64,000 nucleotides of DNA from a bacterium (GCA_020440645.1 JAGRNR010000004.1:12762-76761); one strand, 5' to 3'. Counted from the stretch's first letter, positions 79-55,400 are shown. Notes: generated by a model not told the origin, from the sequence alone. Program-made: numbers and translations.

Positions 79-1848
79 ATGGGCCGCGGACGTGGCCGAG
101 GCCGAGGAGCCCAGCCACACAAACCGGAGCATCTCGGCAACCGCCTGCCCCCCGAGGAACGGATGCTGCCGGATGACTATGGCAACCGGATAGACCAGCC
201 GGAGCGTCCGGCCCGTGGTGGCCAGCGCCGGGATGCCCAGGGCAGCGGCCGCACTGAGCGCCAGCCGCGCCAGGACCGTCCGGCCCGCGAGCAGCGTCCC
301 CCACGCGGGGATCGCGGACCGCGCCAGCGCAATGAGCGCGGCGGTGACTATGTGGACGAGCAGCCCGCGCCGCGTTTCGTGGACCGCGAGCATCAGCCTG
401 CCCCGCGATTCATCAACAGGAACGAACTGGGCCGTGAGGGCCTTGACGATGGCAACCGCCGCCGCCGCAGCCGTGGCCGGCGGGGCCGGGGCCGCTCCAG
501 TGAGGGCGGCACGCGGGGGGAGGACCGCCAGGGACCGGGGCAAGCCGGGCCTGAGCAGGCGGGAGCACCCGCGGCTCAGGCGTCGGAGCGACAGCAGGAT
601 GGAAGCAGGGGCCGCCGTCGCAGCGCGGCTGCCGGCAATCCGCCTGAAGTCCGCCGCCCTGCCATGCGCACTCGTCCCGAGCGCAGTGATGACAGCGGCC
701 AGACCCGCGTCGCCAACCGCCGCAGCCGTGCCAAGGAAGAGAAGCTCGAGCTGGACATCATCGCCTTCATCCGTGACAACCCCGTTGTGCATGAGATCGA
801 GGGCATCTTCGAGCCGACCCACATGTTCAGCGATTTCGGCCTGTCAGCCAGGCTGCTGGCCAACGTCGAGAAGCGTGGCTACGAAGCCCCGACACCGATC
901 CAGGATGTTGCCATCCCGCCGGTCAAGGAAGGCCGTGACGTGGTCGGGCTGGCCAATACCGGCACCGGCAAGACGGCAGCCTTCCTGCTGCCGCTGATCG
1001 ACCGGATGCTGGCTGACAAGTCACAGTACGCGCTTGTGCTGGCACCGACCCGCGAGCTGGCAATCCAGATCGAGGAGGAGCTGCAGAGCTTCACGATCGG
1101 GCTCGGCATGCGCTCAACGGTGATCGTCGGCGGTGTGGGCGAGGGTGCGCAGCTCAAGAGCCTGCGTGCTGACAACCGTTTCATCATCGCCACCCCGGGC
1201 CGCCTGATCGACTTCATCAAGCGCGGTGAACTGTCACTGGACCGCTTCAACAACGTGGTGCTGGATGAGGCCGACCGCATGCTGGACATGGGCTTCATCC
1301 GCGACATGCGCTTCGTGATCGGCAGGCTGCCGCGCCAGCGCCAGACCCTGTTCTTCTCGGCGACGATGTCCGAGGAGATCCGCTCCCTGATCGGCGAGTT
1401 CCTGCATGACCCGGTGACGGTCAGCGTGGTGCGCCACAAGACCGCTGCTAACGTGCAGCAGGAAGTGATCAGCATGGCCGGGCGCAAGCGCTTCGAGATG
1501 CTCGTGGATCTGCTGGGCCAGCCGGACATGACGCGTGTGCTGGTGTTTGGCCGCACGAAGCACGGCATGAACAAGCTGAGCAACATGCTCAACCGCGAGG
1601 GCCTGGAGACGGACGCGATCCATGGCAACAAGAGCCACAATGCCCGCCAGCTGGCGCTCAAGCGCTTCAAGGAAGGCAGTATCCAGGCACTGGTGGCGAC
1701 GGATGTGGCGGCGCGCGGGCTGGACATTGACGACGTCAGCCACGTGATCAACTTCGAGCTGCCGCAGACATATGACGACTACATCCACCGCATCGGCCGC
1801 ACGGGACGTGCCGGCCGGACGGGACATGCGATCACGTTCATCGAGTGA
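79..1848 (+). CDS. DEAD-box ATP-dependent RNA helicase (RhlE/DeaD-like) with ~220-aa N-terminal Arg/Gly-rich low-complexity extension
   Basis: Translation shows Q-motif (GYEAPTPIQ), motif I GLANTGTGKTAAFLLP, PTRELA, DEAD box VLDEADRMLDMGF, SAT, HRIGRTGRAG. N-terminal 220 aa are RGRGRG/RRRRSRGRRGRGR-rich with repeated QPAPRF(V/I)(D/N)R. Reading frame is open back to nt 1, so the true start may lie upstream of the window or at an internal Met. Confidence 0.9.
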   Translation: MGRGRGRGRGAQPHKPEHLGNRLPPEERMLPDDYGNRIDQPERPARGGQRRDAQGSGRTERQPRQDRPAREQRPPRGDRGPRQRNERGGDYVDEQPAPRFVDREHQPAPRFINRNELGREGLDDGNRRRRSRGRRGRGRSSEGGTRGEDRQGPGQAGPEQAGAPAAQASERQQDGSRGRRRSAAAGNPPEVRRPAMRTRPERSDDSGQTRVANRRSRAKEEKLELDIIAFIRDNPVVHEIEGIFEPTHMFSDFGLSARLLANVEKRGYEAPTPIQDVAIPPVKEGRDVVGLANTGTGKTAAFLLPLIDRMLADKSQYALVLAPTRELAIQIEEELQSFTIGLGMRSTVIVGGVGEGAQLKSLRADNRFIIATPGRLIDFIKRGELSLDRFNNVVLDEADRMLDMGFIRDMRFVIGRLPRQRQTLFFSATMSEEIRSLIGEFLHDPVTVSVVRHKTAANVQQEVISMAGRKRFEMLVDLLGQPDMTRVLVFGRTKHGMNKLSNMLNREGLETDAIHGNKSHNARQLALKRFKEGSIQALVATDVAARGLDIDDVSHVINFELPQTYDDYIHRIGRTGRAGRTGHAITFIE

Positions 1849-1855
1849 GGAGTGC

Positions 1856-1901
1856 GGAGTTTGGAGTGGGGAGTGACTCTCCACTCCAACCGCCAAACTC
1901 C
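1856..1901. terminator. Imperfect hairpin between convergent helicase and peptidase genes (candidate bidirectional terminator, no clear T-tract)
   Basis: GGAGTTTGGAGTGGGGAG ... CTCCACTCCAACCGCCAAACTCC; arms GGAGTTTGG/CCAAACTCC and GGAGTGG/CCACTCC pair. Located 8 nt after the helicase stop and abutting the peptidase stop. Confidence 0.35.
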
Positions 1902-4067
1902 CTACTCAAACCTGTCCAGCGCTGCCGGGATGTCAACGCCCATGTTGTGCAGGGCGAAGCACATCAGGTCGGAGAATTCCGCGATGCTCTTGGCCAGCGG
2001 CTTGCCCGCGCCATGCCCGGCCTGGGTCTCCACACGCACCAGCACCGGGTTGTCACAGGCCTGCACATGCTGGATCTGCGCCGTGAACTTGAAGGTGTGG
2101 CTCGGCACCACGCGGTCGTCCGTGTCGGCGGTGGTTGCCAGGGTCGGCGGGTAGCAGACTCCCTCGCGCAGGTTATGCAGCGGTGAGTAGGCGTACAGCG
2201 CCTTGAATTCCTCGGGGTCCTGCGGGCTGCCGAAGTCGCTTTCCCAGCCGCCGCCGGCGGTGAACTGGTTGAAGCGCAGCATGTCCATCACACCGACCTG
2301 CGGCAGGGCCGCCGCGAACAGTTCGGGACGCTGCGTCATCACCGCGCCGACCAGCAGGCCGCCATTGCTGCCACCCATCACCGCCAGTTTCCCGCGTGAG
2401 GTATAGCCGCTGTCAATCAGGAACTCGGCAGCCGCAATGAAGTCGTCAAACGCTACTTGCCGGTTTGTCTTGATAGCCGCCTGGTGCCAGGCCTCGCCGT
2501 ATTCGCCCCCACCACGGATGCAGGCGATCGCCCACACGCCGCCCATGTCCATCCAGACCGTGCGGCTGGTGGAGAAGTACGGGCCCTGGCTGGAATTGAA
2601 GCCGCCGTAGCCGTAGAGCACGGTCGGGTTGCTGCCATCCAGCTCTATGTCCTTGTGGTGCGCGAGGAACAGAGGCACGGCAGTGCCGTCCTTGCTGCGG
2701 TAGAAGCGGAACTCGCCGACGTAGCTGGACGGGTCGAAGCTCAGCTCGGGCTGGCGGTAGAGTTCGCTTTGCAGCGTTGCCAGGTTGAGGCGGTAGATTG
2801 TGCCCGGCGTCGTCATATCCGTGTAGGTGTAGAACACCTCGCTGGCATCCATCCGTCCGCCTAATCCGCCGGCACTGCCAACGCCTGGCAGCTGCAGGTC
2901 CTGTACGAAACTGCCATCCATGTCGTAGACCTTCACTGCGCTGCGCGCATCCTGCAGGTATTCGCAAAGCATGCGGCCGCCGGTCAGGCTGACGCCGGAC
3001 AGCGGAAAGCGGCTTTCCGGGACCAATTCCTGCCAGTTGGCGCGGTCCGGATTGCGGCGGTCGATCTCGACTATGCGCCCGCGCGGCGCATCGAGCGTGG
3101 TCTGGAACCACAGGCGGTCACCGTTGTTGCCAAGGAAGCCGAAGTCGGCGTCGTCAATGTCAATCAGCTTCTCGACCGTGCGCTGCGGGTCGGCGGGGTC
3201 CATCAGGTAGATCCGGTTTCCGGTGCTGCCGCGCTCGCTTAAGTAGATCACCAGCAGGTCGCGCTGCTCATTGGTGCCGGCGCTGATCCACCAGTCCGGA
3301 TGCTCGGGCAGTTCGTAAACCAGCTCATCTGCGGACTGCTCAGTGCCGATGGCATGGTACATGGTCTTCCTGTCAACGTTGGCTGCGGTGAACTCCTCAC
3401 CCTCGGCGGGGACCGGGAATGTCAGGTAGTAGAAGCCGGCATTGCCGGAGCCCCAACTGGCAACACCGAACTTGCCCCACTGTACGAGGTCCGGCAGGTC
3501 CTCACCCGTCGCCACGTCACGCACCTGCCACTCGCACCAGTCTGAACCGCTGACGCTCTTGGCATAGAGAAGCAACGTGCCGTCGTCACTGGGTTGCCAG
3601 CTGGCAAGCGAGACTGAGCTGTCATCAGAGAAGGCGTTCGGGTCAAGGATCACGCGGGCCTCACCGTCCAGGCCCTCGCTCACATAGAGCACACTCTGGT
3701 TCTGCAGGCCGTCATTGCGGGTGAAGAAGTAACGTCCACCGGCCTCGGCTGGTGCGCTGAAGCGCTCATAGTCAACGCGCTGCATCATGCGCTCGTAGAC
3801 AGCATCCCGTCCGGCGATGCCGTCGAGGTAGCTGAAGGTCAGCTCGTTCTCGGCATCGACCCACTGCTTCAGCTCATCGCTACCGAGCTCCTCCATCCAG
3901 CGGTAGGGGTCGGCTACCTGCGTGCCGTGGTAGTCGTCCACCACATCGCCGCGCCGGGCCTCGGGATAGTCGAGTCCCTGGGCAAGGACTGGTGTCAGGG
4001 CTGCCAGCGTTGCCAGCAGGGCAAAGGCCAGGATGCGGTACAGGCCGCGAGCGTGCGCGTTATTCAT
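1902..4067 (-). CDS. Prolyl oligopeptidase (S9A family serine peptidase), secreted
   Basis: Catalytic triad context GGSNGGLLVGAV (Ser), DDRVVPSHTFKF (Asp), GHGAGKP (His). N-terminal beta-propeller region. Signal peptide MNNAHARGLYRILAFALLATLAALTPVLAQG. Confidence 0.85.
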   Translation of the reverse strand: MNNAHARGLYRILAFALLATLAALTPVLAQGLDYPEARRGDVVDDYHGTQVADPYRWMEELGSDELKQWVDAENELTFSYLDGIAGRDAVYERMMQRVDYERFSAPAEAGGRYFFTRNDGLQNQSVLYVSEGLDGEARVILDPNAFSDDSSVSLASWQPSDDGTLLLYAKSVSGSDWCEWQVRDVATGEDLPDLVQWGKFGVASWGSGNAGFYYLTFPVPAEGEEFTAANVDRKTMYHAIGTEQSADELVYELPEHPDWWISAGTNEQRDLLVIYLSERGSTGNRIYLMDPADPQRTVEKLIDIDDADFGFLGNNGDRLWFQTTLDAPRGRIVEIDRRNPDRANWQELVPESRFPLSGVSLTGGRMLCEYLQDARSAVKVYDMDGSFVQDLQLPGVGSAGGLGGRMDASEVFYTYTDMTTPGTIYRLNLATLQSELYRQPELSFDPSSYVGEFRFYRSKDGTAVPLFLAHHKDIELDGSNPTVLYGYGGFNSSQGPYFSTSRTVWMDMGGVWAIACIRGGGEYGEAWHQAAIKTNRQVAFDDFIAAAEFLIDSGYTSRGKLAVMGGSNGGLLVGAVMTQRPELFAAALPQVGVMDMLRFNQFTAGGGWESDFGSPQDPEEFKALYAYSPLHNLREGVCYPPTLATTADTDDRVVPSHTFKFTAQIQHVQACDNPVLVRVETQAGHGAGKPLAKSIAEFSDLMCFALHNMGVDIPAALDRFE

Positions 4068-4118
4068 ATTGACTCCAGCTATCGAAGTGGGTTCTGAGTA
4101 TAGAAGAGGGAGCAGGGT

Positions 4119-4135
4119 GCAGGTTGCTGGTTGCA
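4119..4135 (-). promoter_or_regulatory. Conserved 17-22 nt upstream motif GCAGGTTGC(T/C)GGTTGCA (coding-strand TGCAACCrGCAACCTGCA), copy 1, ~55 nt upstream of the peptidase start
   Basis: Near-identical copy at 24662-24678 upstream of another secreted-protein gene on the same strand; contains a tandem GCAACC direct repeat. Confidence 0.35.
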
Positions 4136-4222
4136 GTAGGAAGCAGATTGTATCTTGATGGCGATCTTATGCGCTTGGCTTCTCCCTCTGCTGCATCCTA
4201 CAACCAGCACCCAGTAACCTGG

Positions 4223-6322
4223 TCACGGCGAAGCCGTGACTCCCATGTTGTGCAGCGCAAAGGCGTACATGTCCGCGAATTCGCGCATCTCCTGGGCGAT
4301 CGGCTTGCCCTGGCCATGTCCGGCGCGGGTGTCGATGCGGATAAGCGCAGGTCTATCGCAGGACTGCACCGCCTGCAGGCGCGCGGCGAACTTGTAGCTG
4401 TGGCTCGGCACCACACGGTCGTCTGTGTCACCAGTAGTGACCAGTGTGGCGGGATAGCATGTGCCCTCACGCAGGTTATGCAGTGGTGAGTAGGCGCGGA
4501 TCGCGCGGTATTCATCCTCGTTCTGCGGGCTGCCGTAGTCGCTCTCCCAGAAGGGGCCGGCGGTGAACTGGTTGAAGCGCAGCATGTCCATCACGCCGAC
4601 TTGCGGCAGGGCGACGGCGAACAGATCCGGGCGCTGGCACAGCACGGCACCGACCAGCAGGCCGCCGTTGCTGCGGCCCTGGATGGCGAGGCGTTCGCGC
4701 GTGGTCCAGCCTTCCCTGAGCAGGTATTCTGCAGCGGTAATGAAGTCCTCATAGGCCCGCTGGCGGTTCTGCTTGATTGCCGCGTGGTGCCAGGCCTTGC
4801 CATACTCACTGCCACCGCGGATGCCGGCGATCGCGAACAGCCCGCCCATTTCGATCCAGGCCGCACGCGCCGGGGTGAACTTCGGGATCTGCGCGATGTT
4901 GAAGCCACCGTATCCGTACAGAATGGTCGGCAGGTTGTTTCCCGGCTTCAGTCCCCTTCTGTGGGCGAGGTGCAGCGGAACGCGGGTGCCGTCGGCACTT
5001 TCGTAGAACACGGTGCTGGTTTCGTAGAGCGCCTGGTCCCAGCCGTTGTCAGGTGCTGGATCAATAGCCGTGACGCTCGCATTGCCGGACGGCAGCGCGG
5101 AAATGTCAACGCGCAGGGTGCAGTCCGGTGTGATCGCATCTGTGTAGTCGAGGAAGAACTCGCTGGAGCCAGCGCTGCCGTGCATGTTTTCAACGTTGCC
5201 ATTTCCCGGCAGGGATAGCCTGTCCAGCTCAGAACCATCAGTGGCGAACAAACGCATCACACTGGCGGCATGTTCAAGGTACTGGCAGGCGAAGCGACCG
5301 CCGTACAGGGCCGCCACTCGCAGGGCCTCCGGCTGCTCTGGCACCAGCTCGCGCCAGTCTGCGGGGCCCGGATTGCCGCGCTCGACCTCCACGATGCAGT
5401 AGTTCGGTGCGGAATGGTCAGTGCGGAACCACAGCCTGTTGCCATCGTTGCCCAGGAACTGCATGCCATGCTCATAGCTGTCAACCAGCAGCTCAGGCTG
5501 GGCACCATCCAGCAGGTCCAGCAGGATGATGCGGTTGCCGGGCATCCCGCGCCGGCTGTTGTAAATCACCAGCAGGTCACGGGCATGGTTAAGGCCAAAG
5601 AAGATTCCCTCGTCCTGCTTGCCAGGCAGGGCGAACAACTGTACGTCTACTGCCTGTTCCTGCCCAAGGATGTGCCGGTGGATGCTGGCGGCGTGGCTGC
5701 CGTCCATGTGTTCACGACCCGGGCGTGGTTCGGGGTAACGCTTGTAGATGAAGGAGCTGCCGTCCGCCTCCCATGCGGCGTTCGCATACTTGCCCCAGCG
5801 GATGGTGTCCGGCAGGTCTGTGCCCGTCGCCACGTCGCGCACGCGCCAGGTGGTCCAGTCGCTGCCGCTTTCGCTTGTGCCATACAGCAGCTTGGAACCG
5901 TCGCGGGACGGTGCCCACATTGCCAGCGAGACACTGCCGTTGTCAGAGAAGCTGTTCGGGTCCAGCAGCAGGCGCGGCTCGCCATCCAGTCCCTCGCTGA
6001 CGAACAGCTGGTCCTGGTCATGGCTGCCGTCATTGAGCATGCGGAAGTACAGGCCGCCGGCCTCATGCGGCAGGCCGCGGTGGCCGCCGGTCGCCAGCCT
6101 CATCAGGCGATCCAGGATGGCGCTGCGCTCATCGATGGCGGAGAGGTAACCCTCTGTCAGCTCGTTCTGGGCATCCACCCAGGCTTCGGTCTCAGCGCTG
6201 CGGATCTCCTCCAGCCAGCGGTAGGGATCGGCCACCTGCTCGCCGTGGTAGTCATCAACAGTGTCGTCACAGCGGGTGACAGGGTAGTTCAAAGCGGGGC
6301 GTGGAAGAGGGTTGTCATTCAT
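4223..6322 (-). CDS. Prolyl oligopeptidase (S9A) paralog, no obvious signal peptide
   Basis: GRSNGGLLVGAV, DDRVVPSHSYKF, GHGQGKP; same overall architecture and clearly alignable with the adjacent 1902-4067 product (tandem paralogs). Confidence 0.85.
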   Translation of the reverse strand: MNDNPLPRPALNYPVTRCDDTVDDYHGEQVADPYRWLEEIRSAETEAWVDAQNELTEGYLSAIDERSAILDRLMRLATGGHRGLPHEAGGLYFRMLNDGSHDQDQLFVSEGLDGEPRLLLDPNSFSDNGSVSLAMWAPSRDGSKLLYGTSESGSDWTTWRVRDVATGTDLPDTIRWGKYANAAWEADGSSFIYKRYPEPRPGREHMDGSHAASIHRHILGQEQAVDVQLFALPGKQDEGIFFGLNHARDLLVIYNSRRGMPGNRIILLDLLDGAQPELLVDSYEHGMQFLGNDGNRLWFRTDHSAPNYCIVEVERGNPGPADWRELVPEQPEALRVAALYGGRFACQYLEHAASVMRLFATDGSELDRLSLPGNGNVENMHGSAGSSEFFLDYTDAITPDCTLRVDISALPSGNASVTAIDPAPDNGWDQALYETSTVFYESADGTRVPLHLAHRRGLKPGNNLPTILYGYGGFNIAQIPKFTPARAAWIEMGGLFAIAGIRGGSEYGKAWHHAAIKQNRQRAYEDFITAAEYLLREGWTTRERLAIQGRSNGGLLVGAVLCQRPDLFAVALPQVGVMDMLRFNQFTAGPFWESDYGSPQNEDEYRAIRAYSPLHNLREGTCYPATLVTTGDTDDRVVPSHSYKFAARLQAVQSCDRPALIRIDTRAGHGQGKPIAQEMREFADMYAFALHNMGVTASP

Positions 6323-6338
6323 GGGAAGACCAGTTTAA

Positions 6339-6441
6339 CAGTGGTCAGTAGTCAGTGGTCAGTGGTCAGTGGTCAGTGGTCAGTAATGCTATCCGGTTCG
6401 ATTCATTTTCCTGACCACTGACTACTGATCACTGACTACTG
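6339..6441. repeat. Seven tandem heptamers (CAGTGGT/CAGTAGT/CAGTAAT, 6339-6387) followed by a 23-nt loop and an inverted copy (CTGACCACTGACTACTGATCACTGACTACTG, 6411-6441), able to form a long stem-loop
   Basis: Read directly from the sequence. The right arm overlaps the last codons and stop (6436-6438) of the BirA-like gene; the element lies just upstream of the peptidase-2 start (6322). Confidence 0.65.
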
Positions 6442-7389
6442 CGATTCCAGTTCCGAATAGCTTTCGATTTCATATTGATTGCCGGCCTCATCCTGCACAT
6501 ACAGATGGCCGCTGGCGAAGTCGACATGTGTGGCTGTCACCGGGATGGTTTTCCCCTCGCGATTCAGCAGCCAGCGCTGGCCAGCGCTGCGGTCCAGTTC
6601 CCGCCAGTCCGGCTCCAGTTCGCGGATCGCAGAGTCGTCCGCCGCGCTGAAGCCCTGCAAGATACCGTTGAATACCAGCTTGCCGTAGAGCCGCATCACG
6701 ATCCCGCTGAACAGGGCCTCGCGGTCCAGCTGCATCCCGCAACAGTCCCGCACTGTGGTCAGGCGATCATGCAGCTCCAGCGCGAATGCGCTAGCCGTCG
6801 AGTTCACGTTGAGACCGATTCCGATCACAAGCAGGCCCGGCAGGTGCTCTGTCAGGATCCCGCCGCACTTGCGGTACAACAGCTCACCATCGGAATCGCG
6901 GCGTGCCATCAGCAGGTCATTGGGCCATTTGATGGCGCAGATGCTGCTGGCCAGGCTGTCGCGGGCCTCATTGATTGCCCGAGTGACACGCTCACCCGTC
7001 GTGGCATTCCCATCCCCGCCCGGGTCGTCTTCCTGCTGGTAAATCCGGGCCGCGCGCCACTGTTCACGCACGAGGTTGGAAAGGCTCTGGCCCAGCAGCA
7101 CGGAAAGGGCCAGCGGCAGGCGGGGACTGGGCTCAAGCCCATTTGTGAGCGGCAGGCCAAGCGAGAACGCGATGTCCTGCCCGGGCTGCATGCTCCAGCT
7201 GCGGCCCCGGGTGCCACGGCCCTCTGGCTGGGCGTCAGTGCAGACCAGCAGCGGCTCGGTCAGCCCGCGCACGGCGAACTGCTCCTTAACGAGCTCGCTG
7301 GTGGAGGGGCAGCTTTCGACGTACTGCAGCAGCATCCGGCCATCAAGGCGGGCGGCAAGGGAGGCGGTTGCATCGAGAAGCTTATTCAC
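6436..7389 (-). CDS. birA: Biotin--[acetyl-CoA-carboxylase] ligase (group I BirA-like, no N-terminal HTH)
   Basis: Biotin-binding loop GRGTRGRSW (cf. GRGRRGRKW), KWPNDL, GGILTE, IGIGLN motifs as in E. coli BirA catalytic domain; short N-terminus lacks a DNA-binding domain. Confidence 0.75.
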   Translation of the reverse strand: MNKLLDATASLAARLDGRMLLQYVESCPSTSELVKEQFAVRGLTEPLLVCTDAQPEGRGTRGRSWSMQPGQDIAFSLGLPLTNGLEPSPRLPLALSVLLGQSLSNLVREQWRAARIYQQEDDPGGDGNATTGERVTRAINEARDSLASSICAIKWPNDLLMARRDSDGELLYRKCGGILTEHLPGLLVIGIGLNVNSTASAFALELHDRLTTVRDCCGMQLDREALFSGIVMRLYGKLVFNGILQGFSAADDSAIRELEPDWRELDRSAGQRWLLNREGKTIPVTATHVDFASGHLYVQDEAGNQYEIESYSELESQ

Positions 7390-7406
7390 AATTCATCAAT
7401 AGAACT

Positions 7407-7435
7407 TTGACCTGATGGGCTCGTCTACTTATAAT
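7407..7435 (+). promoter_or_regulatory. Near-consensus sigma70-type promoter TTGACC-N17-TATAAT
   Basis: TTGACC at 7407-7412, 17-nt spacer, TATAAT at 7430-7435; predicted TSS ~7442 upstream of the 7455/7476 start codons (SD GGGAG before ATG 7476). Confidence 0.5.
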
Positions 7436-7454
7436 AGGGTATTCCGCAGAAGGA

Positions 7455-8363
7455 ATGACCTTGCAGGGAGAACCGATGCGCAGTTCACTTATCACTTTGC
7501 TGGCTCTGGCGCTGCTGATCGCAGGCCATTCGGCCGCGCGCGCCGCGGAACTGACCGCGACGGATGCCAAGGTCAGCGAGAAGAAGATCACACTGAGCTT
7601 CAGCGTCAGTGAGATGCCCGAGATAGACAAGGTATTCGACTACGGCGCGAACATCGTCAAGATCAAGGTGCCCGGCCTCAACTTCGGTTCCGCCCAGCTC
7701 AAGGGCGACAAGCTGAAGGTGAGCGACGAACATGGCGAAAGCTTCTACCGCTTCACCCGCTTCTCGAAGATCGAGGGCGGCGGGATGATCTCGATTTACC
7801 TCGGCAAGCTCTGCTCACCGGCGGATGCGCTGGTGGTGCCCCGTGACGGCCGCATCGAGGTTGAGATCATCAAGCCGCTGTGGAAGCTGGACAGCAAGCC
7901 GGCAGACAACCCCGCAGCTGACAACCCGCCAGCCGACGATCCGCCGGCGAATGACAATCCGCCCGCAGACAACACGACGGAGCCCGTGCAGGCCACCCCG
8001 GCGACTGACCAGGGCGGTGACACCCAGGCCCAGCCGGTCAGCAACAACAGCAGCGCTCAGGATCCCCCGGTGCGCCCGGCCTTTGACAACAGTGGAGCCC
8101 AGAGCTACCGCAAGTTTGACCTGGACAAGGTGCCGGCCGCCAAGGTGGAGCTCAAGGGCATGCCCTTTGACGAGGCGATCCTGCGCATCGTGGCGGACAG
8201 CGGCTTCAACGTGGTTGTCGGCAACGGGATTGACGATACTGAAGTCAACCTCAACTTCACGCAGAAGGGCCTGTCGCTCAAGGCGGCACTGGACATCCTC
8301 TGCATGGCCTACGACCTGAAGTACGACGTCACGGATGACGCGATCGTGATCTCTCGCCGCTAG
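7455..8363 (+). CDS. Secreted protein with N-terminal AMIN-like beta domain, Pro/Asp-rich (P-A-D-N) linker and C-terminal STN/N0 (secretin-and-TonB N-terminus) domain
   Basis: Signal peptide MRSSLITLLALALLIAGHSAARA (likely true start ATG 7476). C-terminal VELKGMPFDEAILRIVADSGFNVVVGNGIDDTEVNLNFTQKGLSLKAALDILCMAYDLKYDVTDDAIVIS matches the STN/N0 pattern of PilQ/GspD and FecA-type receptors. Linker PADNPAADNPPADDPPANDNPPADN. No secretin C-domain. Confidence 0.6.
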   Translation: MTLQGEPMRSSLITLLALALLIAGHSAARAAELTATDAKVSEKKITLSFSVSEMPEIDKVFDYGANIVKIKVPGLNFGSAQLKGDKLKVSDEHGESFYRFTRFSKIEGGGMISIYLGKLCSPADALVVPRDGRIEVEIIKPLWKLDSKPADNPAADNPPADDPPANDNPPADNTTEPVQATPATDQGGDTQAQPVSNNSSAQDPPVRPAFDNSGAQSYRKFDLDKVPAAKVELKGMPFDEAILRIVADSGFNVVVGNGIDDTEVNLNFTQKGLSLKAALDILCMAYDLKYDVTDDAIVISRR

Positions 8364-20093: not shown

Positions 20094-20198
20094 GAGGCGC
20101 GCAACTCGCTTGCGCGCAATGAGGAAGAAGAGCCCGCAGAGGGTCTAACCACAGAGAACACAGAGATCACTGAGAACAAGAAAAACCAGGGGAAACGG

Positions 20199-20702
20199 AT
20201 GAGACTAAGTCTACTCAAGATGTCGCCCTTATCATTCTTATTGCTGTTTGCCGCAATTGCAGAGTGCAATGCAGGTGATGTTACTGCAGCCGCTGTGACC
20301 GGAAAGGAAGCGGGAATTGTTGCACAATTCGTGAATGCAGATCCAAACAGCAGGACGCCTGCGGATCTGGAGACACGCTACTATCGCTATCTTACATATC
20401 CATACTTTGCATATGTGCACAATGACAACCTGTATATACTTTTCGATCCAGGTGGGGCATCGGCAAGTCCTCAACGAGTTTCATTCAGTGATCTGGCAAC
20501 AGGAGAATTGATCGGCGAGGTGTCCGTCACTCAGGATCCGGAGGGATACGAAGGTGAGCTGGAATGCGCAAGGGATCTGATCATCATGCCCGTATCCAAG
20601 ATCAGTGACTGGATTGACGGTGAGATCCCTTGGGATGCAATCAGTATGACTGTTGATTGTGTGCTGGGCAAACCTCAGATGCTTGTGCCCTTAATAGACT
20701 GA
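20199..20702 (+). CDS. Secreted protein of unknown function in a low-GC (~42-45%) island
   Basis: Signal peptide MRLSLLKMSPLSFLLLFAAIAECNA; gene GC content far below surrounding DNA; triple 9-mer repeat immediately upstream (20150-20178). Confidence 0.45.
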   Translation: MRLSLLKMSPLSFLLLFAAIAECNAGDVTAAAVTGKEAGIVAQFVNADPNSRTPADLETRYYRYLTYPYFAYVHNDNLYILFDPGGASASPQRVSFSDLATGELIGEVSVTQDPEGYEGELECARDLIIMPVSKISDWIDGEIPWDAISMTVDCVLGKPQMLVPLID

Positions 20703-20827
20703 CAACGGTATTTGTTGTATTGACATAACGTTGCGGTTTCCAGAATTCTCCGTGCTCACTGTGCTCTCTGTGGTTTATCTCTCCGCGTGCTCCTCTCCCT
20801 CCGTAGCCAGAATGAATTCTGACCTCC

Positions 20828-23233: not shown

Positions 23234-24679
23234 CTATCTTGCAGGCTGTACTACGGGCAAAGCAGTCCAGTCCCAGGCGTCAATGGCATCAACAACGTCC
23301 AAATCGTAAGAAGCCAGTTCCTTGCCAGTGTAGAGTTGTCTTTGCTGTTGCCAGATTTCCTCGAAAACCCTGAACCCCATGCCACCGGATATCCACAGGT
23401 CCAGTGTCTCGCGAGCGCCTGGCTGGTTCTCTGCCATCCGGATTGCGGCAGGGAGCAGTTTTTTCTGCGCTACGTACTCCTCATATCGCTGTGGATTGTT
23501 CAATGCCGTGAATATCTCCTCCCTTTCCATCTGCAGCACTCTCAATTCATCAATCAGGAAGGGCAGGTCCTTGCGTTGTTGTACGTCAAGGTAATCCGGG
23601 TAATCTCTGGTGCAGGCCTTCAAGGTGCCTATGATAACCTGCAGCAGGAATGTGTCACCAGAATCCCTCATCCGATAGTAGGCACGGTTATGCAGCATTG
23701 CTCTGTGCAGTGTCTGCAATTCGTTGAATCGCCCCTCCTCCAGCAGCTTCAGCGAAACCCAGTAGGCAAGCTGGAGGCTGGCAGAGGCGGATATCCAGTT
23801 GCGAGAGTTGTAATCGGTAAGGTTTGGTCCGATCAGCATGCCTGCCAGGATCTCATTCCCGGGAACCTGTCCATCCTTGAAACTGTCAATCACGGAACTA
23901 ACCGGGAATTCCGGAATCGGGCCATTGAATGGCGCAGCCAGCGACTGGTCCAGGTCTTCCAGCGCCTCAGCTTCGTTGCCATTGCTGAACTGCAGGAGCG
24001 CACGCTCCAGGTACGCCCAGGCGTGTTCAGGATACAGTGAAGTGTATACGTCGAGGAGTAGCAGCAGCTCCGCGCTGGATTCCCCTTCCCACATGAACTG
24101 CGGCAAGCCGCTGTCCCGCGGAGTTCTAATGCGATTCTTGAGTTGCTTTTCCGAAATCAAGCGCATCATAAGCGCAGGGCTGCGGATGCCACGCTCATAA
24201 GCTTCCTCAAGAATTGCCATCCCGTCCACGATGTCCATGAATACTCCACTGCTGCCAGCCTGCCTGCAGTAGATACGCAGCTCCCACCAGCGCGGGTCAT
24301 CCCCGAACTCATCCTCCCAATCCAGCAGCACGCTATCAGGCAACAGGGCTGGCTCCGCGATGGCGGCATCATTGTGCGAAATGTAGACAAATGCTTCTGG
24401 CGCAGAGTATTCCCAGATTGCGGCTGCATAGCTGTCAAACAGAGCATCGCCGCTTGGCTTTGGTCTCGCGCCCTCAATGCGCGTCTGCACATCCTCGCGA
24501 TGTAGGAGCTGATGGGCAGTTTCCTCGAAGTCAGAGTCGTCATCCTGTGCGTTGGCAGGATAGGCGTTGAAAGTCACCGCCAACAGCAGCATTGCTGCCA
24601 TTACCCAAGGCAGTTTCATTGAGTGTCCTCCCCGACTATCGTAGGACATGGAAACAAGGTTGCAGGTTGCCGGTTGCAC
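23234..24679 (-). CDS. Secreted protein of unknown function (probable start 24619 after GGAGGA SD; MKLPWVMAAMLLLAVTFNAYPANA)
   Basis: Signal peptide; moderate-GC gene; conserved upstream motif at 24662-24678. Confidence 0.5.
   Translation of the reverse strand: MQPATCNLVSMSYDSRGGHSMKLPWVMAAMLLLAVTFNAYPANAQDDDSDFEETAHQLLHREDVQTRIEGARPKPSGDALFDSYAAAIWEYSAPEAFVYISHNDAAIAEPALLPDSVLLDWEDEFGDDPRWWELRIYCRQAGSSGVFMDIVDGMAILEEAYERGIRSPALMMRLISEKQLKNRIRTPRDSGLPQFMWEGESSAELLLLLDVYTSLYPEHAWAYLERALLQFSNGNEAEALEDLDQSLAAPFNGPIPEFPVSSVIDSFKDGQVPGNEILAGMLIGPNLTDYNSRNWISASASLQLAYWVSLKLLEEGRFNELQTLHRAMLHNRAYYRMRDSGDTFLLQVIIGTLKACTRDYPDYLDVQQRKDLPFLIDELRVLQMEREEIFTALNNPQRYEEYVAQKKLLPAAIRMAENQPGARETLDLWISGGMGFRVFEEIWQQQRQLYTGKELASYDLDVVDAIDAWDWTALPVVQPAR
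24662..24678 (-). promoter_or_regulatory. Second copy of upstream motif GCAGGTTGCCGGTTGCA (coding strand TGCAACCGGCAACCTGCAACC), ~45-60 nt upstream of the predicted ATG 24619
   Basis: 16/17 identity with 4119-4135, same orientation relative to the downstream gene. Confidence 0.35.
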
Positions 24680-24808
24680 GTTTCAGGGAAGTCAATGAGT
24701 CAAGAAGTCAACGAGTTAATGGCCTCAATGCTTCTAAGCATTGATGTGACTTATTGCCTGATTGACTCAGTGACTCCGGTCACAATGATTACGGCGAGCT
24801 GAATCCTC

Positions 24809-45180: not shown

Positions 45181-46212
45181 ATGCAGAGCAGATACATCAA
45201 GCCTGACTGGGGCACACAGCTGCGGGGCTTCACCCTGATCGAGCTGCTGGTCGTGATCGTGGTGATCTCCATCCTCGTGGCGATCGCCCTGCCGAACCTG
45301 CAGAAGGTCAAGCGCAAGCAGATGGAAGCCCAGACCGCGACCCAGGTCAATGAGATCCAGAAGGCGCTCGAGGCATTCGGTACCGACCATAACGGCCAGT
45401 ACCCCTTCCGCGTGACCTGGTATGACAACGCCACGGTCAGCGACCCGAACTTCGACCCATACGTCGCCCGTGACACGGGCAGCGGCCTGACCAGCGACCC
45501 GGGCGACCGCTTCTCGCTGGGCATCTGGGGTGGCGCGGAGCGCGTCACCCGCGAGGGCTACAACATCAACACGGTGCAGGACATCGAGCGTCCTGACCTG
45601 CTGCCCCAGCCCTACGCCGCAAACTGGAACTACAACAACTTCTACAACCGCTTCAACCAGTACAGCGACCCGCTGGTGGCGATGGGCTACATCGGCGAGT
45701 ATCCGCCGAACCCCTTCATGAAGCGCCAGATGGGCAACGTGCTCTGGGAGTACGGCGATGCCAACTGGAAGAACGGTGGCCCGGCGCGCCTGGATCCCTC
45801 GATCCCCGGCGAGAACGTGGTGCCGACCCCCGGCGACTTCACCTACACGCACTTCTACGGTGTTGACAACGCCAACGACTACACCTACCCGAAGGGCGTG
45901 GTGGCCGGCAAGGCCGGTTACAACGTGACCTACCCGAGCGGCGCGGTGCAGGACGGCAAGTACTACATCGACGTCGTTGACAGCTACCAGATCTGGGGCT
46001 ACGGCGACATGCGCCTCAACGGCAGCTGGTACGTGAACTACCCAAACAACTCACTCGGCCTTGCGGTGCGCGGCAATGAAGCCGCCGGCAAGGACTGGAA
46101 TGGCAACGGTACGAAGGACATGTTCGAGCGTGGTCTGGTGACCTACGCCAAGCGCAGCGGTCAGGGGTCGACTACGGCAACTGACAACAGCGGCAACAAG
46201 GTTGAATTCTAA
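45181..46212 (+). CDS. Prepilin-type N-terminal domain protein (pseudopilin-like 4, 343 aa)
   Basis: MQSRYIKPDWGTQLRG|FTLIELLVVIVVISILVAIALPNL; start 4 nt after the preceding stop (coupled). Confidence 0.7.
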   Translation: MQSRYIKPDWGTQLRGFTLIELLVVIVVISILVAIALPNLQKVKRKQMEAQTATQVNEIQKALEAFGTDHNGQYPFRVTWYDNATVSDPNFDPYVARDTGSGLTSDPGDRFSLGIWGGAERVTREGYNINTVQDIERPDLLPQPYAANWNYNNFYNRFNQYSDPLVAMGYIGEYPPNPFMKRQMGNVLWEYGDANWKNGGPARLDPSIPGENVVPTPGDFTYTHFYGVDNANDYTYPKGVVAGKAGYNVTYPSGAVQDGKYYIDVVDSYQIWGYGDMRLNGSWYVNYPNNSLGLAVRGNEAAGKDWNGNGTKDMFERGLVTYAKRSGQGSTTATDNSGNKVEF

Positions 46213-49458: not shown

Positions 49459-52400
49459 ATGCGCACTTACACAAATCTCGTTGGTGGGTCCCCGGAAAGC
49501 GGCAGTGCTTCCACGGCTGACCTCACCCCTGGAACTGATATGACTGGAATATCCAATGGCGGAAACACCCCTCAGCACGCCCCTTGCGGGCAGCTCCGCG
49601 GACGCGCTGTGAAGCGCGGCCACCGGGGCGTCGTGCTGCTGGCCGTGATCATCTTCGTGGCGCTCCTGCTCCCGCTGGTGACGCTGGTCCTGACCAGCCT
49701 CAACACGGAAGCGGTCAGCACCGCAGAGGCGATCAAGGGCCACAAGCTGGACCTCGCGAGCCAGAAGGCGCTTAATGACGCCATCTCGCTCGTGGTGCAG
49801 CAGAAGTCCCTGCCGGACTATTACAGCTCGGCCAACCAGCCGGCCACGGCGATCGTCGTGCTCGACCCGGTCAGCGGCTTCCGCCGTGACCAGGTGCCGG
49901 ACAGCGGCGTGGTCGGTGCTGCGGGCCTCGACGACATCCTCGGCACGGGAGACGACTACTGGACCAGTCCCCGTGGCGACCGTTCCGTGCTGCCGACGGA
50001 TGTCTACGACCACACCCGCAACTATGAGTTCGACTTCAGCTTCAGCCAGATGCATTCGCCGACCTACCTCGGCCAGCCCTCGCTGCTGTCGTCAACCAAC
50101 CGCTACAACGGCACGAGCCCGAACACCGGCGAGACCATCTGGCTGTTCAACCCCTACCTGGCGGTGGCGGTTGACGATGATGCCGACGGAATTGACGACG
50201 GTTACGACCCGAACGACGCCGGTGGCGACCCGTTTGACGGCAAGGAGGCCCAGCTGCATGGCAACGGTGGTTTCCCGAATGCTGACGAGCCCCGTCTGAA
50301 CGGGCCCGGAAGTGCCGTCGAACGCAGCCTTGACAACGGAAACAACATCCGGGACTACATGCTCAACTCGCGCATCGCGATCTACGAGAGCGTGTTCACC
50401 GACCTCGACCGCGGCCCCGTGCCGACGGACCTGCTGAAGAGCTATGCCGACGTGACCGATGAGGCCGGCCGCATCAACCTGAACATCTTCTGCAAGAAGG
50501 TGCGCGTGCTGATGCCGGAGGCCGCCGACGTCGACTACAACCTCGAGGGCCTGGCAACCAACGACTTCAACTACAACGAGCAGCTCAACGAGCTCGGCTT
50601 CAAGTGGATTGACAACCCGCTGTTCCCGGACCGCCTGACCAACCAGCGCTGGAACTGGAACATCCCGGCCGGCACGCTGTCCAATGACGGCGATATCGAC
50701 TTCGGTACGCTTGACCCGTCCACCGGCATCCCGGACCCGACCCCGGACGGCTACTCCTGGCCTGACCTGGGCGAGAACGTGCAGCACTTCTACCTCGGCG
50801 ACACCGATGGCGACGGCATTTCCCAGGGCAACGAGGCCGCGCGCCACAGTGTCGAGATGCTGACCAGCCTGCCTGGCGTCGACCTGGAGCTGGCACTCAA
50901 CATCCTCGAGTACCTCAACCCGAGCCAGGACACGCTCAACGCGATCGACCCGGGCTACGCTGATGGCAGCGTCGAGCCCAACATCGACCCGACCATCGGC
51001 GCCGCGGGCTACCGCTATGACGTGGCCAACGTCACCCCGCCGCTGACCGCGCTCGGCATCAACCTCGCGGGCGGCACCGTCGGCAGCATCTTCTGGGACT
51101 TCGCCGCCAGCGATGAGGACGACATGCCGCTGCCGCAGCCCTTCGCGCTTTCGAGCCTGGACCAGCTGCTCAACGTGCCCGGCATGACCCGCGCCAAGTT
51201 CAACAGGCTGAAGGACTACCTGACGATCCACAGCTATGACACCAACGTGATCGGCACCTACATCACCGACGTCGGCCCGGATGCCGACCTGGTGAACGCC
51301 TACGAGGCCGGTGACCCGTTCTTCTTCGGCCAGGTGCGCCGCACCGTGCCGGATGACATGCGCGACACTGACAATGTCAACGACCTGCGCTACGACGTCA
51401 CCGCCACCGCCGGCGGTTTCTCGCTCGAGGACTACCGCGACCGCGCGGAGGAGATGTACGCCTACATCCGCGAGCACCTGCCGAGCACCAACTTCCGCAA
51501 GATCACCCTGCCGGCGGTCGACCGCACCGGCCGCAGTGGCGCGTCAGACCACATGACGCCCAATGACGACCCGCGCTACGACCCGACCGGTGGTGGCCTG
51601 CTTGTGCCGCACCGCGACAGCGAGGCCAACCCCTACAACGTCGGCGCCTTCGGCCACCAGTTCCCGACCAGCGACGAGGCCTTCACGAACTTCGCCGGCT
51701 ACCCGGCGCTGAACCCCGAGTTCAGCCTGGACAGCTGCCTTTCAATCGTGCTCTACCGCAACGGTACGCCGTTCACCGCCGATGACTACACCTACGACTG
51801 GAACGGCGTGAACATGGCTGCCCACCCGGCCAGCCCGGGCATCGGCAACCTGTTCGGCGGCGGTGCGTTCTTCTTCATCGAGCGCATCTTCGGCATCTTC
51901 GGCGGCGGCTTCGACTTCGGTCCGAACAACAACCCGCCGGACGGCTTCGACTTCGCCACGCTGGCCAACACGAACAATGCCAACCCGGTCGTCACTCCGC
52001 ACGGCCCCGGCGTGTTCACCGCTGCCAACCTGCTCAACCCGGGCACCTTCGACAGCGCGGCTGACCTGCTGCAGGTCCCGCTCTACGAGTTCAGCAGCAT
52101 GAGTGTCAGCCTGATGTCCGACCCGCCGTCAGACTACCGTGACCCGATTGTCAACCAGAACGGCATCGTGAGCTACTACGCCACCTTCAGTGACGTGGTG
52201 CCGGTCAGCTGGTACTTCGACAACGTGACCGGCCCCGACGGCAACCTCGGCACGGCAGATGACCCGGCGCAGGACGTGGTGCTGTACATGCTGTACTTCA
52301 ACTACGCCAACCGCACCGGTGTGTTCCCCTCCGCGGGTGGCCCGTATGACGCTCCCTCGCTCAGCGCTGACACGGTGCAGATTCCGCTCACCGCGCAGCA

Positions 52401-55400
52401 GATCCGCTCGGTCAGCCCGGTGTTCCCCGGCATGACCGGCAATGTCACGATCCAGGCCTATGACAACTTCAACAACCTGGACGTGCTCGGCCCCGACTTC
52501 ACCAACAGCCCGGCATTCGCCAGCACGCTGGCCCCGCTCGGCGGCGTCGGCAGCCTCGGCCGCAACTTCAGCTACCAGCAGGTCCCGTACCCGCTGGGTG
52601 GCGGCGTGACGGATGATGGCAACTGGCGCCCGAACGAGGGCAATGCCTGGGACACCGGTGTGGCCCCGGTGCAGTGGCCCGGCTGGGCCTGGACCGGTGA
52701 AGGCGACCCCTACGCCACCGGCCGCATCCTGGCCTACCGCTGGGATGACAATGCCAATGAGCCGGAGGACCCGGAACTGCGCGCGGATGACATCACCAAG
52801 GTCTTCCTGCAGAACAACACCGAGGCCGCGATCCCGTTCGCGGTCAACATCCTGCCGGTGCGCACCGGTGGCGACACATATGACATCTACTCCAGCTACG
52901 GCGGCGCGGACACCTCCGGCGGCGGCAGCTACCTGCTGTTCGACTGGGAGTACCGCGACACGCTCGGCCCGGATGACGACCCGGATGACTTCGACGGCAC
53001 CTGGCCGACGGAGCAGCCCGGGCAGCTGATCAACAACCCGATCCAGATCCGCGTCAACCCGGAGGGCAACACGGTCACGCTGCACATGTATGACCTGCGC
53101 AGCTTCGTTGACTCCAGTGGCCTGCCGATCGCCAGCGGCACGCCTGCGCTGCCCGGCAACATCTATGCCGGCGGCCGCGTGCAGACCACCCCGTCTGACG
53201 GCGGCACCTTCCCGGTGGACTACGGCGGTGGCTACCCGCCGGTGCCGACTGCTGGCTATGCCTTCGACAGCGCCGTGATCTCCCCGATCGAGACCGCCGC
53301 CGGCTTCCAGGCCCAGCTTGCCAGCCATGAGGTCTCCGTGTTTGACAACGACACCAGTGTCGAGGTCGAGATGAGTGCCGCCGGTGGCGACCTGAACTAC
53401 AACTGGGAACTGCGCGTGCTTGACGCGACGCTTGGCAACGGTGCCGGCGGCCCCTACCAGGGTCCCGACGGTGCCGGCCCGATCGCCAGCTTCCCCGGCC
53501 TCGGCAGCCCGCCGCGTCCGTCCCGCGTCACTCCCCCGGGATTCGACTATGCAGCCGCCGAGCTCGTGCCCGGCACCCTGCTGGTCGTGGCCGGCAGCAG
53601 CAGCAGCCCCGAGTGGAACACATTCTTCGACCCGAGCGGCCTGCCGAACAACACCGAGTACTGGCTGCGCCTGCGTGTCACCGAGAACGGCGGCACGACG
53701 GACACCGTGTTCAGCAAGCTCGTGAAGGACGACGAGTCCTCCAGCAGCACCGGCACCGCCATCCCGCCGGAGATGAACGCCAGCATCACCCTGCGTGAGC
53801 TCGGTGACAGCCGCCTCGGCTTCACCGCGAGCGCTTCCGTGGACGGCGGCCGTGACGGCTACGGCTACTACTGGGTCCTGACCCGCCCGAAGTACAACGG
53901 CACCGGCAACCACGTGCTGGACAGCGCAATCCCGATGGAGACCGTCGACGCGGCGGCCCCGATCGTGAACCTCGACAGCCTGACGACCGGCGGCGGTGCG
54001 GTCAGCACCACGGTGCAGATGCGCTCCAACGACGCCAGCCCGAGCTTCGAGTTCAGCCAGCTTGACAACTATGACAACGAGACCGGCGCGGCCGGCGCGG
54101 ACGGCATCCCGGATGCGCAGGGTGTGTACTTCGTGCACTGCTTCGTGCTCGACCGCAACAACCTGCTGCCCTCCAGCGGCCAGTCTTTCATCGCGCATGA
54201 CGTGGCGCAGGTGACCCTGAGCAACCTCGGCACCGGCGGCAGCGGAGTGCCCGACACCTCCGGCATCGCCCGCACCCCGATGGCGGTGCTGGCGGCGAAC
54301 CCGCCGGGCAATGCCAGCATCTCAGCCGGCACCAACAACAGCGCCGCCGGTGGTGCGAACCCGCCCTACATCGGCAGTGCGACCATCGACCCGGCAATTG
54401 AGCCCGACGTGGCCGCCAACGGCCAGGCGATCGTGATCCGCGGTTTCAACTTCGACCCGGTTGCCAGCAACAACACCGTGCACTTCGCCGGTGGCGTGAG
54501 CGCGACCGGCGCCGGTGTGACGGCCCCGAGCGGAGTTGACATCCTCAACATCGGCGGCTCGCCCTACGGCCAGCAGGAGCTGACCGTGCGCGTGCCGGAC
54601 GGCGCCCGCACCGGCTTCATCACCGTGCAGACCCCGGGTGGCACCAGTGATCGCCGCTACATCTTCCAGACCGGCTTCAACGTGACCTTCGACCTGATCG
54701 GCAGCCTGTCCGTGAATGATGCGGCCTACCTGCAGTACGACCTGGACTTCCAGGGCGACGGCAAGATCGACTACAGCTACAGCTCACTGAGCAACCCGTC
54801 CGGTGGACGCCAGCTGATCGGCAGCAACCTCGGCATCACCCATGACTACGCCGGCGACGGCATCGGCAACTACAACGCCACCCTGACGGTCAAGGACCTC
54901 GTCAGCGGGCGCACCGCCGTCAGCCACCAGCTGGTGATGATCCATGACCTTGCCAACGTGAGCGGCACGAACCTCGTGCTTGCCAGCGGCTTCATCGGCA
55001 ACATCTTCCTGGCCGGCACGCCGTCCTTCACGGATGGTGCAGCGAGCTTCATCAGCGCCGGCGTGCTGCCGGGCGACCTGGTGACCAACCTGAACACCGG
55101 AGCCACCACCAGCGTTGTCAGCGTGATCTCGCAGAACGAGGTTGGCTGCGGCAGCCTGAGCGCCCCGCAGTGGAACATCGGCGATGCCTACAGCATCAGC
55201 CGCTTCGTTGACAGCAACGGCGCCTACGGCATCCTGGCCGACATCTGGCCGGACATCGACACCCGCGGTGCCAGCTTCAACCCGCAGCCCGGCAGTGGCC
55301 TGGCCTTCCGCAGCGCGGTCGGCGGCATCAACACCGCCCTGGCCCGCCGCAAGTGGCAGATCGACCTGAACGGCACCAGTGGCACCCGTGGCGGTGAGCA

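Follow-up and report, generated by a model that had tools for sequence, protein, structure and literature searches.

What is the element at positions 6339-6441, and does it serve the genes that it separates? In the stretch of bacterial DNA analyzed here (64,000 nucleotides, referred to as the window), a tandem array of heptanucleotides faces an inverted copy of itself between a gene for a biotin-protein-ligase-like protein and a gene for a prolyl oligopeptidase. Tandem Repeats Finder identified a period-7 array at 6339-6384 (6.6 copies, 94% matches, consensus CAGTGGT), which a degenerate seventh unit, CAGTAAT, carries on to 6387, and an inverse array of the same period at 6411-6441 (4.4 copies, consensus CTGACCA). 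An inverted-repeat finder paired 6346-6376 with 6411-6441 as arms of 31 nt that are 94% complementary, the longest and best inverted repeat of the 64-kb window, and the tandem array, inverted copy and 23-nt loop described in the original prediction were thus confirmed. Several alternative pairing registers exist between the 6339-6387 and 6411-6441 arms. The 14-mer CAGTGGTCAGTGGT, searched in the 64-kb window with up to 2 mismatches, gave 10 matches where 0.66 were expected; nine of them are within the element, and the tenth, at 46155-46168 with 2 mismatches, is at chance level.

The three neighboring genes are all on the minus strand. Upstream is the gene for the ligase-like protein (6436-7389, 317 aa), a divergent member recognized by Pfam BPL_LplA_LipB (E = 2.6e-10), whose best NCBIfam match, birA_ligase, scored 73.7 bits, under the 83.1-bit cut-off. 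Downstream are the gene for an S9 prolyl oligopeptidase (4223-6322, 699 aa, Pfam Peptidase_S9_N and Peptidase_S9, ATG at 6320-6322) and that for a second S9 prolyl oligopeptidase paralog (1902-4067, identified with Pfam). A DEAD-box RNA helicase gene on the plus strand (79-1848) converges on the three. Read on the minus strand, the 5′ arm (6411-6441) is made up of the units CAGTAGT, CAGTGAT, CAGTAGT, CAGTGGT and CAG, followed by a loop of about 23 nt (6388-6410, GAAAATGAATCGAACCGGATAGC) with a small internal stem in the predicted fold. The 3′ arm (6339-6387) consists of 6.6 (CTGACCA)-type units; it is the variable arm, and two of its units have no partner in the 5′ arm. As had been predicted, the element overlaps the stop of the BirA-like gene: the TAG at 6436-6438, within the first CAGTAGT unit, is its stop codon. 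The hairpin fills the whole spacer from this codon to a -10-like box in front of the peptidase gene.

RNA folding of 6325-6455 gave energies far below those of shuffled sequences, in agreement with the stem-loop originally proposed. The minus (transcribed) strand folded at -54.9 kcal/mol (z = -6.2) and the plus strand at -68.3 kcal/mol (z = -9.0), and 0 of 200 shuffles were as low in either case. The sense fold is the weaker one because the mismatches between the arms are A.C in sense and G.U in antisense. The suggestion of a strong terminator did not hold up in its canonical form. No U-tract follows the stem on either strand (sense 3′ flank GUUAAACUGGUCUUCCC, plus-strand flank CGATTCCAGTTCC), a scan of 1500-8000 for consensus terminators and promoters found nothing at the element, and a search of the whole window against Rfam at gathering thresholds returned 0 matches. 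What the element shares with intrinsic and "I-shaped" terminators is a stable stem-loop directly after a stop codon and, between convergent genes, a bidirectional placement; it differs from canonical intrinsic terminators in having no U-tract and in its far larger dimensions (stem of about 31 bp, loop of 23 nt). Tail-less "I-shaped" terminators have been proposed for high-GC bacteria.

An extended -10-like box, TGTTAAACT (TGnTAAACT; 6332-6340, minus strand), follows the hairpin immediately on its 3′ side and precedes the peptidase ATG by 9 nt. The same position holds TGTTAAACT, TGTTACACT, TGATAAACT or TGCTATACT in the related loci L001, L202, L211, L212 and L204, and a box (TATACT, TACACT or TAAACT) precedes the peptidase gene in all relatives, with or without the repeat. 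Restricted TAnnnT boxes were found 5-9 nt before the start codon in 9 of the 40 genes of the window, against an expectation of about 1.3 calculated from 12 boxes over 45 other upstream positions. The starts with such boxes (TATACT, TAAACT, TAAAAT or TATAAT) are at 6322, 12686, 17806, 33586, 41098, 41292, 42783, 49459 and 60142. These boxes at 5-9 nt suggest that leaderless mRNAs are frequent in the lineage. The ORF at 49459-59982, with a TAAACT box 9 nt before its ATG, is a single frame of 3507 aa with a GC3 of 0.90, and the sequence TATACTGG recurs upstream of genes in the relatives. The gene that follows 4223-6322 has TATACT, about 25 nt, GGAG and ATG, conserved in all relatives, an arrangement that reads as the normal layout of -10 box, transcription start, Shine-Dalgarno sequence and start codon. 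We infer that each peptidase gene has its own promoter, which for the first one is probably the TGTTAAACT box, with an mRNA that would be leaderless or nearly so. With a conserved -10-like box placed between hairpin and ATG, the peptidase mRNA probably starts downstream of the hairpin, and the initial placement of the element in the 5′ leader of the peptidase gene is doubtful. Rather than being part of that leader, the hairpin probably lies 3′ of the ligase-like transcript and covers the -35/upstream region of the promoter that follows. The CTGACC units were considered as a -35 box and rejected, since they are 5, 12 and 19 nt away from the -10-like box and none of these distances is optimal.

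We propose, with a probability of about one half, that the element is a slippage-generated hairpin without a U-tract, located at a transcript end and dispensable. In this proposal, a long RNA stem-loop would form at the 3′ end of the biotin-ligase-like transcript and act as a U-tract-less terminator and/or a barrier to 3′-exonucleases, as REP elements do, and it would shield the downstream peptidase promoter from read-through. REPs stabilize upstream mRNA and attenuate transcription. On closure of the hairpin, the RNA in the RNA:DNA hybrid would be the pyrimidine-rich, last-transcribed arm. Hybrids of the r(pyrimidine):d(purine) type are weak, and such a hybrid could replace the U-tract, in both directions by symmetry. 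Such a function would be dispensable, and the precise sequence could drift freely through replication slippage. Against a role at the transcript end are the sense fold, which is weaker than the antisense fold, the relatives that have no hairpin and the missing U-tract.

The history of the element was followed in related genomes. The closest one is CP060262.1 ("MAG: Planctomycetales bacterium HK-STAS-UBP7_A-1"), in which the ligase-like protein is 94% identical and 11.5 kb of DNA align at 93.7% nucleotide identity, and the four-gene synteny is kept in metagenomic relatives down to 61% identity. The element was found in independent assemblies (L081, L001, L208-L210, L202 and L203) and is therefore no assembly artefact. 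L208-L210 are identical to L001. The 6411-6441 arm is identical in the window, L081, L001 and L208-L210, and the loop at 6388-6410 has two substitutions with respect to L001. The 3′ arm has four units in L001 and L208-L210 and six in the window and L081, in line with the slipped-strand variable repeat of the original prediction. Compared with L001, the window has an insertion of 14 nt, or two units, placed at 6351-6364. The order of units in the variable arm is CCA, CCA, CCA, CCA, CTA, CCA in the window, CCA, CCA, CTA, CCA, CTA, CCA in L081 and CCA, CCA, CTA, CCA in L001. L081 is 99.7% identical to the window, one array unit being different (CTA for CCA), and its array equals that of L001 plus a duplicated 14-nt CTGACTACTGACCA. 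The gain or loss of whole units in the start-proximal arm is consistent with replication slippage.

At larger distances, the site holds other structures. L202 and L203 (74% BirA protein identity) have a larger CAGTGGT hairpin with homologous loop ends and a 3′ flank that matches the window (CACTGTTACACTG, i.e., CACTGTTA(A/C)ACTG), as well as an additional GC-rich hairpin after the stop codon. L211 (70%) and L212 (68%) have arrays of the 9-mer CTTCTTCCA that end in the same ...CCACTG(T/A)TAAACTGG, L207 (62%) has a repeat of 21-nt period and complementary type, and L204 and L206 (61%) have a gap of 36-42 nt with no repeat or hairpin. As these last two relatives lack the element at the site, it is not needed and is dispensable. 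L204 also includes, at 4783-6470, a DarT/Macro-domain gene pair (DarTG-type toxin-antitoxin) beside the fumarase gene; this pair is absent from the synteny of the window. The element is therefore inherited and dispensable; it has persisted for long in one clade and varies by whole units, and the stop-to-promoter gap itself acts as a repeat nursery. Our favored reading takes it as an inverted microsatellite of local origin, inherited and prone to slippage, with the structure (CAGTGGT)n, loop, (ACCACTG)n.

A search for purifying selection between the window and L001 found no excess conservation of the element with respect to nearby synonymous sites: 97 of 99 positions of the element are conserved, against 88-96% at nearby third codon positions. 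This comparison shows no constraint because the local divergence between the two is too low to tell. The divergence is a mosaic, noted at 4223-6322, in which nucleotide identity varies between 87% and 99.6% from gene to gene over 12 kb, and this suggests recombination between lineages. The main rival to our proposal is that the element is a neutral mutational by-product, functionless slippage debris in a tolerated stop-to-promoter gap, where slippage, which in many bacteria favors 7-nt units, and hairpin-templated copying between the arms would inflate any short repeat. Several of the observations above speak for it, namely the 7-mers, 9-mers (CTTCTTCCA), 21-mer or nothing at the site in the relatives, the lack of conservation in excess of synonymous sites and the unequal length of the arms, to which can be added that published studies assigned no function. 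We nevertheless consider it somewhat unlikely, in view of other properties of the repeats that are described below and are unexpected from symmetric slippage alone.

Four further inverted repeats made of repeat arrays were identified in the window, each with a different unit. One, at 1843-1907, lies between convergent genes and extends from stop codon to stop codon, with GAGTGNG units and a loop of 1 nt. Another, at 4106-4224 between the two peptidase genes (minus strand), has AGGGTGC/AGGTTGC units around a loop of about 39 nt. It overlaps the stop codon of the first of them (4223-6322), ends 3 nt before the TATACT box (4097-4102) and has a sense fold weaker than the antisense one, as at 6339-6441. 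A weaker one in a divergent intergenic region (24657-24775) consists of three AGGTTGC units, then four AGTCAATG-type 8-mers and their complement. Lastly, inverted arrays of a CACAGAGAA-type 9-mer at 20148-20179 and 20750-20782, about 570 nt apart, bracket the ORF 20199-20702, which is low in GC and encodes 167 aa with a signal-peptide-like N-terminus. The region 20148-20782 resembles one of these hairpins whose loop holds a gene, or else an inserted cassette. Three of the four heptamer elements of the window touch a stop codon, and in all window elements the purine-rich arm comes first.

The convergent site was compared among relatives, leaving aside L207, whose contig ends inside the gap. In L001 (reverse complement of 1280-1475), the site has GAGCAAT units and a structured loop of 115 nt, folding at -92 kcal/mol; this hairpin is wholly different from that of the window despite flanks of 97% identity, and nothing similar to the L001-specific loop was found elsewhere in the window. 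A long hairpin is present at the site in the window, L001, L202, L204 and L206, with different sequences and energies of -41 to -105 kcal/mol. The sequence at this site turns over, with hairpin potential retained. The comparison bears on the neutral by-product from both sides: fast turnover of units and loops between nearly identical flanks is what it would produce, but the potential to form a hairpin was kept in every relative that could be examined.

Similar arrays were therefore present within the window, with other units, and they were also found in other genomes, so that the absence of such elements elsewhere, which would have spoken against the original prediction, was not what was observed. 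The exact sequence (CAGTGGT)x3 occurs in at least 120 metagenome contigs (L082-L201), whose GC contents span 33-73%, and in IMG/VR viral contigs (58 stretches, L213-L270), and many of the CAGTGGT arrays fold as hairpins of 30 to more than 100 bp. The density of period-7 arrays was 6.3 per 100 kb in the window (4 in 64 kb), 12 per 100 kb in the relatives (9 in 74 kb) and 0.8 per 100 kb in unrelated loci (7 in 857 kb); the CAGTGGT-carrying contigs among the matches listed had 186 heptamer arrays in 687 kb. An inverse copy was located within 300 nt (score of at least 14) for 82 of the 221 period-7 arrays away from contig ends (37%, among the matches listed), and reversed or complemented control queries for the same 221 arrays found 9 (4%). 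Pairing of period-7 arrays with an inverse copy far exceeds chance, and the class is genome-wide and cross-lineage.

The pairs have a fixed handedness. In 28 of 28 non-redundant pairs among the matches listed, (CAGTGGT)n comes first and (ACCACTG)n second, and the reverse order was found in 0; this order reads alike on both strands. When 142 non-redundant period-7 hairpins of any unit were examined among the matches listed, 139 showed a G/C bias, the 5′ arm having more G than C in 124 and less in 15 (p = 1.6e-22). The bias persisted, 61 versus 13, among the matches listed with units at least 2 mismatches away from CAGTGGT. Both arm orders give the same duplex, and therefore thermodynamics cannot account for the order; what is needed is a process with a direction, for instance transcription or translation, or else a generating mechanism that is itself directional. 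The handedness (28 of 28, 124 versus 15) is unexpected if the arrays are by-products of symmetric slippage. It supports a tail-less terminator because the arm transcribed last is pyrimidine-rich in every case, and the hybrid that it forms with the template is weak. A comparison of sense and antisense folding energies in 26 tandem-context hairpins among the matches listed is a point against the transcript-end role, with no sense bias (14 versus 12, p = 0.34), although the ORF-based strand calls are noisy and the focal locus itself was mis-called. Metagenome hairpins among the matches listed were in tandem (23), convergent (4) or divergent (4) contexts, and in 16 of 31 the upstream stop was -19 to +7 nt from the array; both counts are indicative only, because units that contain TAG or TGA end any frame entering them.

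Solitary arrays are oriented as well. Handedness was measured on about 140 hairpins and orientation on about 170 solitary arrays, among the matches listed, and (ACCACTG)n lay on the sense strand, with a long ATG-ORF within 60 nt downstream, in 60 cases versus 13 in the opposite orientation. This, too, is unexpected from symmetric slippage alone, and it points, at least in part, to a role for the downstream gene instead of the upstream one, which counts against the transcript-end role. The hairpin could then be a regulatory element that tunes expression of the peptidase gene: the (ACCACUG)n arm, C/A-rich, G-poor and with UGA in three frames, would aid translation initiation or the promoter, and the complementary arm would sequester it. 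The orientation is the same as that of the Beggiatoaceae TAACTGA repeats (PMC4679880), 2-6 nt separate the arm from the ATG in viral contigs, and the variation in the lineage of the window affects the start-proximal arm. In Nostoc, deletion of heptamer repeats modestly changed the behavior of the recO promoter. At the locus under study, however, a conserved -10-like box separates the array from the ATG, so that the array is probably outside the peptidase mRNA; the TGAC cores are 12 or 19 nt from the -10 box and not 16-18 nt, extra units alter no spacing, and the gene and the box are both present in relatives that lack the array. We consider regulation of the downstream gene clearly unlikely here. 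A phase-variable (contingency) repeat was also rejected, as the array overlaps only the stop codon and the tract is upstream of the -10-like box. The periodicity leaves the proximal sequence unchanged when units are added, and no phase variation is therefore expected.

Phage-like contigs of about 60% GC (L219, L229 and L265 (IMGVR_UViG_3300044824_000335), L231, L236, L243, L222 and L226) have a CAGTAAT/CAGTGAT...ACCACTG/ATTACTG hairpin in many of their intergenic gaps. The 3′ arm of the phage-like hairpins ends a few nt before a Shine-Dalgarno sequence or an ATG, the loop CAGTAAAGGCAAAAACTG is conserved within one phage-like group, and (CTGATAA)n units are found at the outer ends of CAGTGGT-type hairpins in viral contigs. 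In 81 heptamer arrays far from CAGTGGT arrays, among the matches listed (L082-L201), CAGT/ACTG was present in 18.5% of the units and TCAG/CTGA in 17%, about three times the expected share of about 5.5%. The long arrays in L119, L169 and L185 have outer units CAGTAGT or CCGTAGT, which contain TAG, and inner units CAGTGGT or CAGTGAT, a gradient that suggests growth near the loop or seeding from a stop-codon-containing unit. The occurrence of such a hairpin in many of the gaps between genes of compact phage-like contigs speaks against a neutral by-product. A broader idea is that hairpins with a CAGT core, including the CAGTAAT/CTGATAA variants, form a handed, cross-phylum, phage-borne class whose arm order and orientation toward start codons would reflect a dedicated mechanism and not passive debris of slippage, with the STRR, TAACTGA and GGGAATC repeats discussed below as facets of one phenomenon. 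We hold this to be doubtful. The mechanism could be a general U-tract-independent bidirectional terminator or insulator acting through weak r(pyrimidine):d(purine) hybrids, or a nucleic-acid-binding protein that would read heptamers.

The wide distribution also raises the possibility of a mobile element of the REP/REPIN or MITE type spread by a transposase. REPs are fixed-sequence units of 20-40 bp, present hundreds of times; they bear an unpaired tag, GTAG or CGTC, and have a cognate RAYT transposase (PMC3733652). The element shares with REP, BIME and REPIN structures its extragenic position at gene ends and its palindromic nature, its outer units (CAGTAGT) include GTAG, and the same heptamer hairpin is found in many unrelated and phage-like contigs, with the loop conserved in one phage group. 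However, its stem is made of microsatellite repeats, the unit changes from one locus of the window to the next, and the 64 kb contain no further CAGTGGT-type copy. The GTAG is internal and base-paired, occurring only inside paired CAGTAGT units, and no unpaired GTAG or CGTC tag was found. The element occupies an orthologous position in the relatives, with flanks shared over long divergence; there are no target-site duplications at 6339-6441 and no terminal inverted repeats beyond the arrays. No plasmid in PLSDB was matched by blastn, with the reservation that low-complexity filtering may hide such a match. Mobility by these means is highly improbable, and the likeness to REPs that had been proposed stands only in a loose sense, although REPs are the functional analogy that we favor.

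Among long microsatellites, heptamers show the strongest over-representation in many bacterial genomes, according to the summaries of earlier work (Mrazek et al. 2007, summarised in PMC4679880 and PMC4692102). The features that define intergenic heptanucleotide repeats were examined at the locus. At least three head-to-tail units of 7 nt are present (6.6 and 4.4 copies), the site is non-coding and period 7 is in excess within these 64 kb of genome, the number of units is polymorphic between close relatives (4 versus 6, and larger in L202), and there is a convergent inverse partner array as in the Xanthomonas sub-type (31 nt, 94% complementary). The element is a further case of the known intergenic heptanucleotide repeats, inverted pairs included, since every feature examined was found. 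Published work since 1990 is not known to have assigned them a function.

The closest parallel in architecture is found in Xanthomonas, which has about 185 GGGAATC-type arrays, among them 70-75 pairs described as "always" convergent (Rehm et al. 2015, PMC4692102). Those arrays are intergenic, at an average of 28 nt after the upstream ORF, and depleted between divergent genes; their length varies between Xcc and Xac, and they are mostly transcribed, with no function found (PMC4692102). Both systems have tandem 7-nt units in intergenic DNA near the 3′ end of the upstream ORF, often with an inverse array and with the G-rich arm first, and in both the length and sequence vary between close relatives and no function has been assigned. 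The differences are that each locus of the window has a different unit, whereas one unit dominates in Xanthomonas, and that the host is a Planctomycetales-labelled MAG and not a gammaproteobacterium. Unlike GGGAATC, the CAGTGGT unit has no G-tract, and therefore no G-quadruplex is possible.

The STRR repeats of cyanobacteria are also intergenic tandem heptamers. They were reportedly described by Mazel et al. in 1990 (cited in PMC4692102) as a few high-copy unit types in heterocystous cyanobacteria. STRR2 (TTGGTCA) is one base from the rotated unit GTGGTCA, and STRR1 (CCCCAGT) and STRR3 (CAACAGT) share the CAGT core; these similarities of units may be coincidental. In contrast with the few high-copy unit types per cyanobacterial genome, the element is known from 64 kb. 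Direct repeats of TAACTGA (= CTGATAA) are found in marine Beggiatoaceae, cyanobacteria and Bacteroidetes and are oriented toward start codons (MacGregor 2015, PMC4679880). They resemble the repeats of this study in being heptamers with an ACTGA core, in their sense-strand orientation upstream of start codons, in having stop codons in all frames and in being scattered across phyla. They differ in that the sets are nearly all direct (1 inverted set in 170, PMC4679880), whereas the element is a paired hairpin with a different unit.

For the organism, the hairpin marks a gene boundary, and the three co-directional genes probably have separate promoters. The number of units in the array is a possible marker for strain typing. 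The consequences of a single locus are small. Since heptamer hairpins are found in compact phage-like genomes, at least some of them are arguably used. The handedness and the start-codon orientation are simple, testable constraints for any explanation of heptamer repeats, and these class-wide rules are the part worth following.
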